Notes under the pieces: model-generated
Databases searched by the model: none
What the model saw: only the letters and a program-made list of their open reading frames with translations
Told to the model about the DNA's origin: nothing
Position numbers and translations under genes: made by a program
In this document: positions 49,381-49,478 of the stretch, in pieces
Layout: the number at the start of each line of letters is the position of its first letter
How positions within the stretch are numbered: position 1 is the stretch's first letter
Assembly (NCBI RefSeq): GCF_003334335.1
Contig: NZ_QOWQ01000015.1
DNA: 64,000 nucleotides
Source: Escherichia coli
GTDB taxonomy: Bacteria > Pseudomonadota > Gammaproteobacteria > Enterobacterales > Enterobacteriaceae
Strand: one strand, 5' to 3'

Positions 49381-49447
49381 GAGCTGACCCCTTGGTTACG
49401 AATACAGAGTACAAACCCCGTACAAAAGTACGGGGCATAATGCAATT

Positions 49448-49478
49448 ATAGATGGGGGGGATTTTGAGGGTTTCAACC
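49448..49478 (-). promoter_or_regulatory. sigma32 heat-shock promoter of hslVU
   Basis: Minus strand reads gTTGAAAccctcaaaatCCCCCCATCTAtaat: -35 TTGAAA and -10 CCCCATNT-type match; overlaps the ftsN stop codon. Confidence 0.75.

Follow-up and report, generated by a model that had tools for sequence, protein, structure and literature searches.

The interval between ftsN and hslV in the Escherichia coli DNA analysed here is almost certainly hslVp, the RpoH (sigma-32) heat-shock promoter of the hslVU (clpQY) operon, together with a leader that stabilises its transcript. The dependence on rpoH, the effect of a -10 mutation, the stabilising hairpin structure and the read-through transcripts have been shown by published experiment. 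Earlier publications already cover the promoter, its sigma factor, the hairpin with its function, the read-through from ftsN and the adaptive mutations of the C tract, and the leader is curated in Rfam. The value of our analysis is confirmatory: a reading made only from the letters of the DNA had correctly recognised a real regulatory junction. New here are the family-wide conservation of the fusion between the -35 element and the ftsN stop codon, a numerical inconsistency in the published transcription start, and the side observations.

According to the mechanism that we propose, the sigma-32 holoenzyme would recognise TTGAAA, with the ftsN stop codon in it, and CCCCATCT located 13 nt downstream. 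Initiation would take place ~11 nt downstream of the A in CCCCAT, close to the start predicted in Table 1. The nascent transcript would fold almost immediately into a GC-rich hairpin of 9 bp close to its 5' end. This hairpin prolongs the life of the mRNA, most likely by hindering a 5'-end-dependent decay, a pathway that we infer. The Shine-Dalgarno sequence and the GTG codon of hslV come after the hairpin.

Locus and gene neighbourhood

The window, i.e. the whole stretch of 64 kb that was analysed, carries on its minus strand, between ~47.5 and 53.9 kb, the genes priA, cytR, ftsN, hslV, hslU and menA, as judged from the list of open reading frames and the RefSeq annotation. The features of the locus are collected in Table 1. 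Window positions are converted into MG1655 positions by adding 4,072,907; the GTG of hslV (49380) is thus at 4122287 and the final base of ftsN (49473) at 4122380. The ftsN-hslV intergenic gap (49472-49381) is 92 nt long, and on the minus strand the 3' end of ftsN reads CTC GCC GCC GGG GGT TGA (...LAAGG*). Between 49360 and 49540 (181 nt) the sequence shows 100% identity with both E. coli K-12 MG1655 and an O157:H7 genome, and a 301-nt query spanning the interval has a match in all complete E. coli genomes (5,426/5,426). Since the interval is 100% identical to that of K-12, the experiments performed with K-12 apply here.

Table 1. Features of the ftsN-hslV junction (window coordinates)
Feature	Position	Strand	Basis
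ftsN CDS, 319 aa, ends ...RLAAGG*	49473..50432	-	ORF list; RefSeq annotation of identical sequence
ftsN stop codon TGA	49475-49473	-	sequence
-35 element TTGAAA of hslVp, includes ftsN stop	49471..49476	-	sequence; unique motif match in window
13-nt spacer ACCCTCAAAATCC, length as in dnaK P1 scaffold	49458..49470	-	sequence; PMC10216364
C7 homopolymer tract, end of spacer and start of -10	49454..49460	-	1-bp/2-bp deletions in heat-evolved E. coli
sigma-32 -10 element CCCCATCT	49450..49457	-	sequence; C-to-T mutant loses heat induction (PMC2681174)
perfect TATAAT, latent sigma-70/sigma-S -10 overlapping the end of the sigma-32 -10, preceded by C	49445..49450	-	sequence
predicted +1, ~49442 (MG1655 ~4122349)	49441..49443	-	predicted from dnaK P1 scaffold geometry, not mapped
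5'UTR stem-loop, 9 bp, UUUU loop	49415..49436	-	fold; inverted repeat
Rfam RF02401 (ClpQY_promoter cis-regulatory leader), hairpin through GTG	49378..49435	-	covariance-model match
Shine-Dalgarno AAGGGG, 7 nt 5' of GTG	49388..49393	-	sequence; invariant in 44 species, but part of the locus-search pattern
hslV (clpQ) CDS, GTG start	48850..49380	-	ORF list; RefSeq annotation
hslU (clpY) CDS, second operon gene	47509..48840	-	ORF list; RefSeq annotation

Elements of the sigma-32 promoter

A preliminary description of this DNA had recognised the sigma-32 consensus in TTGAAA and the accompanying -10 element. Both elements are indeed present where it had placed them, and dependence on rpoH is documented in PMC2681174. 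The -35 hexamer is that expected for sigma-32, and the base 5' of it is a G, not the C of the (C)TTGAAA consensus. On the minus strand CCCCCATCTA, at 49458-49449, encloses the -10 core CCCCATCT. This core agrees with CCCCATNT and its C-rich upstream bases, as it lies within a run of seven C's, of which the last four are its own first four. The 13 nt that separate TTGAAA from CCCCAT are within the ~13-14 nt of sigma-32 promoters. The same description had noted that the -35 element overlaps the stop codon of ftsN, and the TGA is actually inside TTGAAA. Its further wording, that the promoter is embedded in the 3' end of ftsN, is right as to the overlap but overstated: apart from the stop codon, T49476 is the sole base in common, and a fusion with no more than 11 nt of ftsN keeps full activity (PMC2681174).

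The motif TTGAAA-N12-15-CCCCAT has a single match on the two strands of the 64-kb window, versus 0.05 expected from dinucleotide shuffles, and 4 of 100 shuffles contained any match at all. When two mismatches were allowed, the scan of the 64-kb window gave no further match, versus ~2 expected by chance, and only the exact match is therefore informative.

Published experiments on hslVp

Both a clpQ::lacZ fusion and the native clpQY mRNA are heat-induced, and basal as well as heat-induced expression is lower in rpoH mutants but not in rpoS mutants (PMC2681174). In the rpoH mutant the clpQY mRNA is strongly reduced, with residual basal expression remaining (PMC2681174). A C-to-T change in the -10 element (CCTCATCT) abolishes heat induction, and basal expression of this mutant is down merely 1.7-fold (PMC2681174). 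According to the primers of the same study, a 141-bp fragment extends from CCGGGGGTTGAAA (49483) to 49343 and carries only 11 nt of ftsN, yet its activity equals that of a 478-bp fragment with ~350 nt of ftsN (PMC2681174). It follows from this equal activity that nothing upstream of the -35 element is needed. Reporter fusions with and without the 3' end of ftsN, which had been suggested as a check for the locus, were thus already in print. PMC10044804 uses the name 'the sigma32 promoter of hslVU', citing Nonaka 2006. In Salmonella, RpoH ChIP places hslV among the RpoH-bound, heat-induced genes.

Conservation in Enterobacteriaceae and within E. coli

The comparative set contains one genome per species, scanned with the Shine-Dalgarno/start-region pattern AACCAAGGGGTCNGCTCNTG only. 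This gave 52 loci, 3 of which are chance matches in unrelated phyla, the remainder being from Enterobacteriaceae (Escherichia, Salmonella, Citrobacter, Klebsiella, Raoultella, Kosakonia, Enterobacter, Trabulsiella and Intestinirhabdus). The sigma-32 motif is found in each of the 48 Enterobacteriaceae loci with sequence reaching that far, 46 of which are contiguous and 2 contain an insertion. All 46 contiguous loci have TTGAAA-N13(14)-CCCCAT(C/T)T, in which the spacer is rarely 14 nt and the locus L035 reads TTGGAAA. An in-frame ftsN TGA lies inside the -35 element in 44 of these 46 loci, the exceptions, L020 and L035, being due to homopolymer-length differences. The fusion of the -35 element with the stop codon is kept across at least eight Enterobacteriaceae genera, which is demonstrated here for the first time.

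The two exceptions, L020 (Citrobacter amalonaticus AUH_CA_2023_1) and L035 (Enterobacter sp. EA-1), have extra G/C homopolymer bases, e.g. GGGGGGTTGAAACCCCCC and TTGGAAA. These would shift the ftsN frame past the stop and make the spacer 14 nt. Most likely they are long-read assembly errors and not real alleles, and as probable assembly errors both loci were left out of the conservation profile, which comprises 44 species. In this profile, GGGGTTGAAACCC and CCCCAT are 100% identical and CTATA(A/C)T is conserved, while the adjacent ftsN wobble positions fall to 40-80% and the hairpin loop to 50-70%. A promoter block that is invariant next to variable ftsN wobble positions shows that the non-coding promoter is more constrained than synonymous sites.

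The likeness to a sigma-32 promoter could in principle be accidental, its conservation reflecting merely the coding constraint on ftsN. The first five bases of the -35 element coincide with the final Gly codon and the stop of ftsN, and their conservation is perhaps partly due to coding. However, AACCC and the -10 CCCCAT, which are non-coding and, for the latter, 22 nt beyond the stop, are invariant where ftsN wobble sites vary, 0.05 matches are expected per window, and there is direct genetic evidence (PMC2681174). The data on the -10 point mutant effectively refute a chance resemblance, to which we attribute a negligible probability.

Within E. coli, the 120-nt interval hardly varies: it was 100% identical in 36 of 40 evenly spaced matches, and the three most divergent alleles examined have the -35 element, the spacer, the C7 tract and the -10 element all intact. 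Two rare natural variants can be mentioned. E. coli SF-468 (L056) has G49443A in the predicted start region (TTGCA to TTACA), and E. coli BH100 (L057) has a G-to-T change at 49419, by which CGGGG of the hairpin's 3' arm becomes CTGGG and one C-G pair is lost.

Two species carry a repeat inserted directly after CCCCATCTATA: Citrobacter amalonaticus S646 (L043:4369-4495) and Intestinirhabdus alba (L027:1169-1470). The insertion point, the same in both, is approximately the predicted +1. The repeat thus separates the promoter, which is still fused to the ftsN stop, from the hairpin of the leader. Through the inserted repeat, the leader is longer by ~127 nt in the former and by ~300 nt in the latter. 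The 127-nt insert belongs to a dispersed intergenic repeat that carries no annotation, and of which an E. coli genome has a median of 7 near-full-length copies, with ~80% identity. It may resemble ERIC/IRU. Both inserts start with GACAAAATCATTC, which suggests an insertion hotspot in common or an old insertion.

Transcription start: prediction and published value

The reference sigma-32 promoter used in the cryo-EM structure of the sigma-32 open complex is dnaK P1. Its scaffold (-39 to +15) has TTGAAG and, after a spacer of 13 nt, CCCCAT, the A of which is at -11 (PMC10216364). The spacer of hslVp equals that of dnaK P1, so that A49453 should be at -11 and +1 at ~49442. With this geometry the hslVU leader would be ~62 nt long, and the hairpin would be located ~5-6 nt from the 5' end.

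Lien et al. 2009 reported a 'first' start site 71 nt upstream of the GTG (PMC2681174), citing Chuang et al. 1993. This start maps to ~49451, and their leader primer F5 begins at CATCTATAAT, window 49451-49454. These bases correspond to positions -12 to -9, inside the -10 element that Lien et al. mutated. With a +1 inside the -10 element, the published position cannot be the sigma-32 start as stated. It does fall within the ftsN-hslV interval, ~9 nt off from the prediction based on the -10 geometry. The 71-nt figure may come from a primer extension of limited precision, or it may mark the first start among several (the legend has 'arrows'). The often-repeated 71-nt leader may be wrong in papers or databases; being geometrically incompatible with the validated -10 element, it is worth re-examination by curators. 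The high-throughput supplements of Cappable-seq, Romero et al. 2014, the Shigella M90T dRNA-seq, Kim et al. 2012 and Cho et al. 2014 contain no single-base TSS entry for hslV.

The overlapping TATAAT and the C tract

Transcription of hslVU could also be substantially due to sigma-70 or sigma-S acting via CTATAAT, with sigma-32 being only a modulator. The TATAAT in this place is perfect and preceded by a C, the heptamer is conserved as CTATA(A/C)T, rpoH mutants have residual basal expression (PMC2681174), and the RpoS holoenzyme gave a SELEX peak in the hslV-ftsN spacer (PMC5493296). However, there is no -35 element at 16-18 nt from this TATAAT: the 20 nt to TTGAAA are more than sigma-70 accepts, and a sigma-70 promoter scan of 48800-50600 returned 0 sites. 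Moreover, neither an rpoS mutation nor mutation of the putative RpoS -10 had an effect, and the mRNA is strongly reduced in the rpoH mutant (PMC2681174). A transcription driven substantially by these factors is, in our opinion, improbable. As the scan was empty, sigma-70 was rejected as the main driver, and sigma-70 or sigma-S via CTATAAT would be at most a minor contributor to the activity of a promoter that we regard as a sigma-32 promoter.

Concerning the Genomic SELEX with RpoS holoenzyme, the peak in the hslV-ftsN spacer is weak, with an intensity of 3.6, and is at 4120330 in the coordinates of PMC5493296. It fits with CTATAAT/CTATACT overlapping the sigma-32 -10 element, although rpoS mutants show no effect on expression.

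TTGAAA and the perfect TATAAT, 20 nt apart, form a latent near-consensus sigma-70 promoter (49445-49476, minus strand), with the C7 tract between them. The hslVp reading is supported by mutations selected under heat in this tract. A 1-bp deletion at intergenic position -74/+19, which is window 49454, arose in two rescue populations at 43 C (PMC7750951), and most other rescue mutations of that study inactivate hslVU. In the heat-evolved strain BM28, 2 bp are deleted in the run of seven C's (PMC10044804). Either deletion makes the sigma-32 spacer shorter than 13 nt. The 2-bp deletion in addition brings TTGAAA to 18 nt from the perfect TATAAT, resulting in a near-consensus sigma-70 promoter; a shift from sigma-32 to sigma-70 control has already been suggested by the authors (PMC10044804). 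With regard to hslVp, these deletions are of the loss-of-function type. In sampled natural E. coli genomes no variation in the length of the C7 tract was seen. Salmonella, E. albertii and several Citrobacter have a broken run (TCTCCCCCAT) but an unchanged spacing.

The leader hairpin

At 49435-49416 the inverted repeat ccccgtacttttgtacgggg is made of CCCCGTAC-TTTT-GTACGGGG, which a closing G-U pair extends to 49436-49415. A stable hairpin in the 5'UTR had been claimed from the outset, and the folding check bears this out: the hairpin folds with -17.0 kcal/mol, compared with -4.8 +/- 2.1 for shuffled sequences (z = -5.8), and 0 of 200 shuffles were as good. In the fold of a 66-nt leader (-21.8 kcal/mol), the 9-bp hairpin is the sole robust element. 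The leader also matches Rfam RF02401, whose only structural element is this hairpin, over model positions 1-57 of 57, with 63.6 bits versus a gathering score of 42 and E = 2e-13. An outer helix UGCA...UGCA, seen in many single-sequence folds, was rejected: it is absent from Klebsiella/Raoultella and would lie partly upstream of the predicted +1.

In 34 distinct hairpin sequences, 95.8% of the pair cells are standard pairs, versus 26-63% in controls with a slid 3' arm. At one position of the stem, AU is replaced by GC in 7 sequences, and another one varies between CG, UG and UA. As 5 of the 9 pairs never vary, the support from covariation is real but modest. The frequent U-G pairs would be C-A mismatches in an antisense RNA and would break a DNA palindrome; the constraint is therefore on the hslV-sense RNA.

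The function of this structure has been addressed by Lien et al. Deletion of 40 nt of the leader, deletion of the inverted repeat, or replacement of its 3' arm by T's leads to less mRNA and protein and to a shorter half-life (PMC2681174), and a different sequence with a restored stem-loop restores clpQY mRNA (PMC2681174). The clpQY leader showed no effect of Hfq and no behaviour of a thermosensor (PMC2681174).

Read-through from ftsN and the other strand

Transcription units defined by SMRT-Cappable-seq (Yan et al. 2018, PMC6131387, Supplementary Fig. 5) include hslV-hslU, menA-rraA and rraA, as well as the 'extended operons' ftsN-hslV-hslU, hslU alone, cytR-ftsN and hslV-hslU-menA-rraA (PMC6131387). 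The ftsN-hslV-hslU units show that transcripts from an ftsN promoter cross the interval, and some of those initiated at cytR end after ftsN. These units agree with the initial proposal that ftsN read-through and heat-shock initiation converge on the 92-bp gap. The same dataset contains a previously unannotated promoter from which the hslU-only unit arises, and transcripts that pass the hslVU terminator and enter menA-rraA (PMC6131387).

A cytR-ftsN unit ending after ftsN (PMC6131387) raises the question whether the hairpin serves, as its main or as a further function, as an intrinsic terminator or attenuator that ends cytR-ftsN transcripts and limits their entry into hslVU. Its GC-rich 9-bp stem is followed by UUUGU in E. 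coli, and the same palindrome marks the 3' end of an RNA from the opposite strand (Adams et al.). Against this, our scan does not flag the hairpin on the minus strand, and the U-rich tract of an intrinsic terminator is lacking: the tail is UUUGUACU, with CCUGUA or CCCCUA in orthologues, and in orthologues (GGGGCCUGUA, GGGGCCCCUA) the conserved stem has no U tract after it. Furthermore, removal of the hairpin lowers, and does not raise, downstream expression (PMC2681174), and read-through ftsN-hslV-hslU transcripts do exist (PMC6131387). The tables of Adams et al. list no minus-strand RNA 3' end for ftsN or hslV. We give this explanation little credence; termination was rejected as the main role of the hairpin, unflagged by the scan and with a U tract that is not conserved, but it may have a minor, leaky role of this kind. 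We retain the hairpin as stabiliser of the hslVU transcript. With no efficient terminator after ftsN, a fraction of the ftsN transcripts also continues across the promoter to hslVU.

At 49440 (MG1655 4122347), 5 nt past the palindrome, a supplementary table lists a + strand RNA 3' end (Adams et al., bioRxiv 10.1101/2020.07.18.207399). This end, with the annotation 'antisense ftsN', lies antisense to the hslV leader. As the + strand has no U tract after 49440, it looks like the end of an RNA antisense to hslV that was trimmed or protected by the hairpin.

One may speculate further that the palindrome has several roles, as 5' stabiliser of hslVU mRNA, as 3' protection or leaky stop for cytR-ftsN transcripts and as the 3' end of the antisense RNA, that ftsN read-through provides a sigma-32-independent basal level of HslVU, and that the C7 tract is an evolvable switch. 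Taken as a whole this scheme is rather doubtful. If true, ftsN read-through would tie HslVU, the protease degrading the division inhibitor SulA, to a division gene.

Comparison with known systems

The promoter resembles dnaK P1 (PMC10216364) in its TTGAA(A/G) -35 element, its 13-nt spacer, its CCCCAT -10 element and the C-rich 'extended -10' bases at -14/-15. Unlike dnaK P1, hslVp has a -35 element fused with the upstream gene's stop codon, which makes the sequence 5' of this element coding, and its -10 element overlaps a perfect TATAAT.

The leader can be compared with the 5' stem-loops of ompA and papA, an analogy cited in PMC2681174. In these systems as in hslVU, a stable hairpin near the 5' end raises the half-life of the transcript, and it is the structure, not the sequence, that counts. 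The predicted position of the hairpin, ~6 nt from the 5' end, would suit the 5'-proximal stabiliser of ompA/papA type invoked by Lien et al. There are also differences, as the hslVU hairpin would stand behind ~5-6 unpaired nt (~15 nt if the 71-nt leader is right) and also works downstream of the heterologous pBAD promoter, with extra 5' nucleotides before it. In the pBAD constructs we assume that a vector-derived leader precedes the hairpin as well. The hairpin stabilises pBAD mRNA behind the extra 5' nt of the 71-nt leader, and a simple 5'-end protection is therefore not proven.

The closest comparison is with hslVp and the clpQY leader of K-12, as far as given by Chuang et al. 1993 through PMC2681174 and by RF02401. 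The sole discrepancy is between the published 71-nt leader and the ~62 nt derived from sigma-32 geometry. It is the same locus with an identical sequence: the -35 element, the -10 element, the inverted repeat CCCCGTACTTTTGTACGGGG, the Shine-Dalgarno sequence and the GTG are all the same, with no sequence difference.
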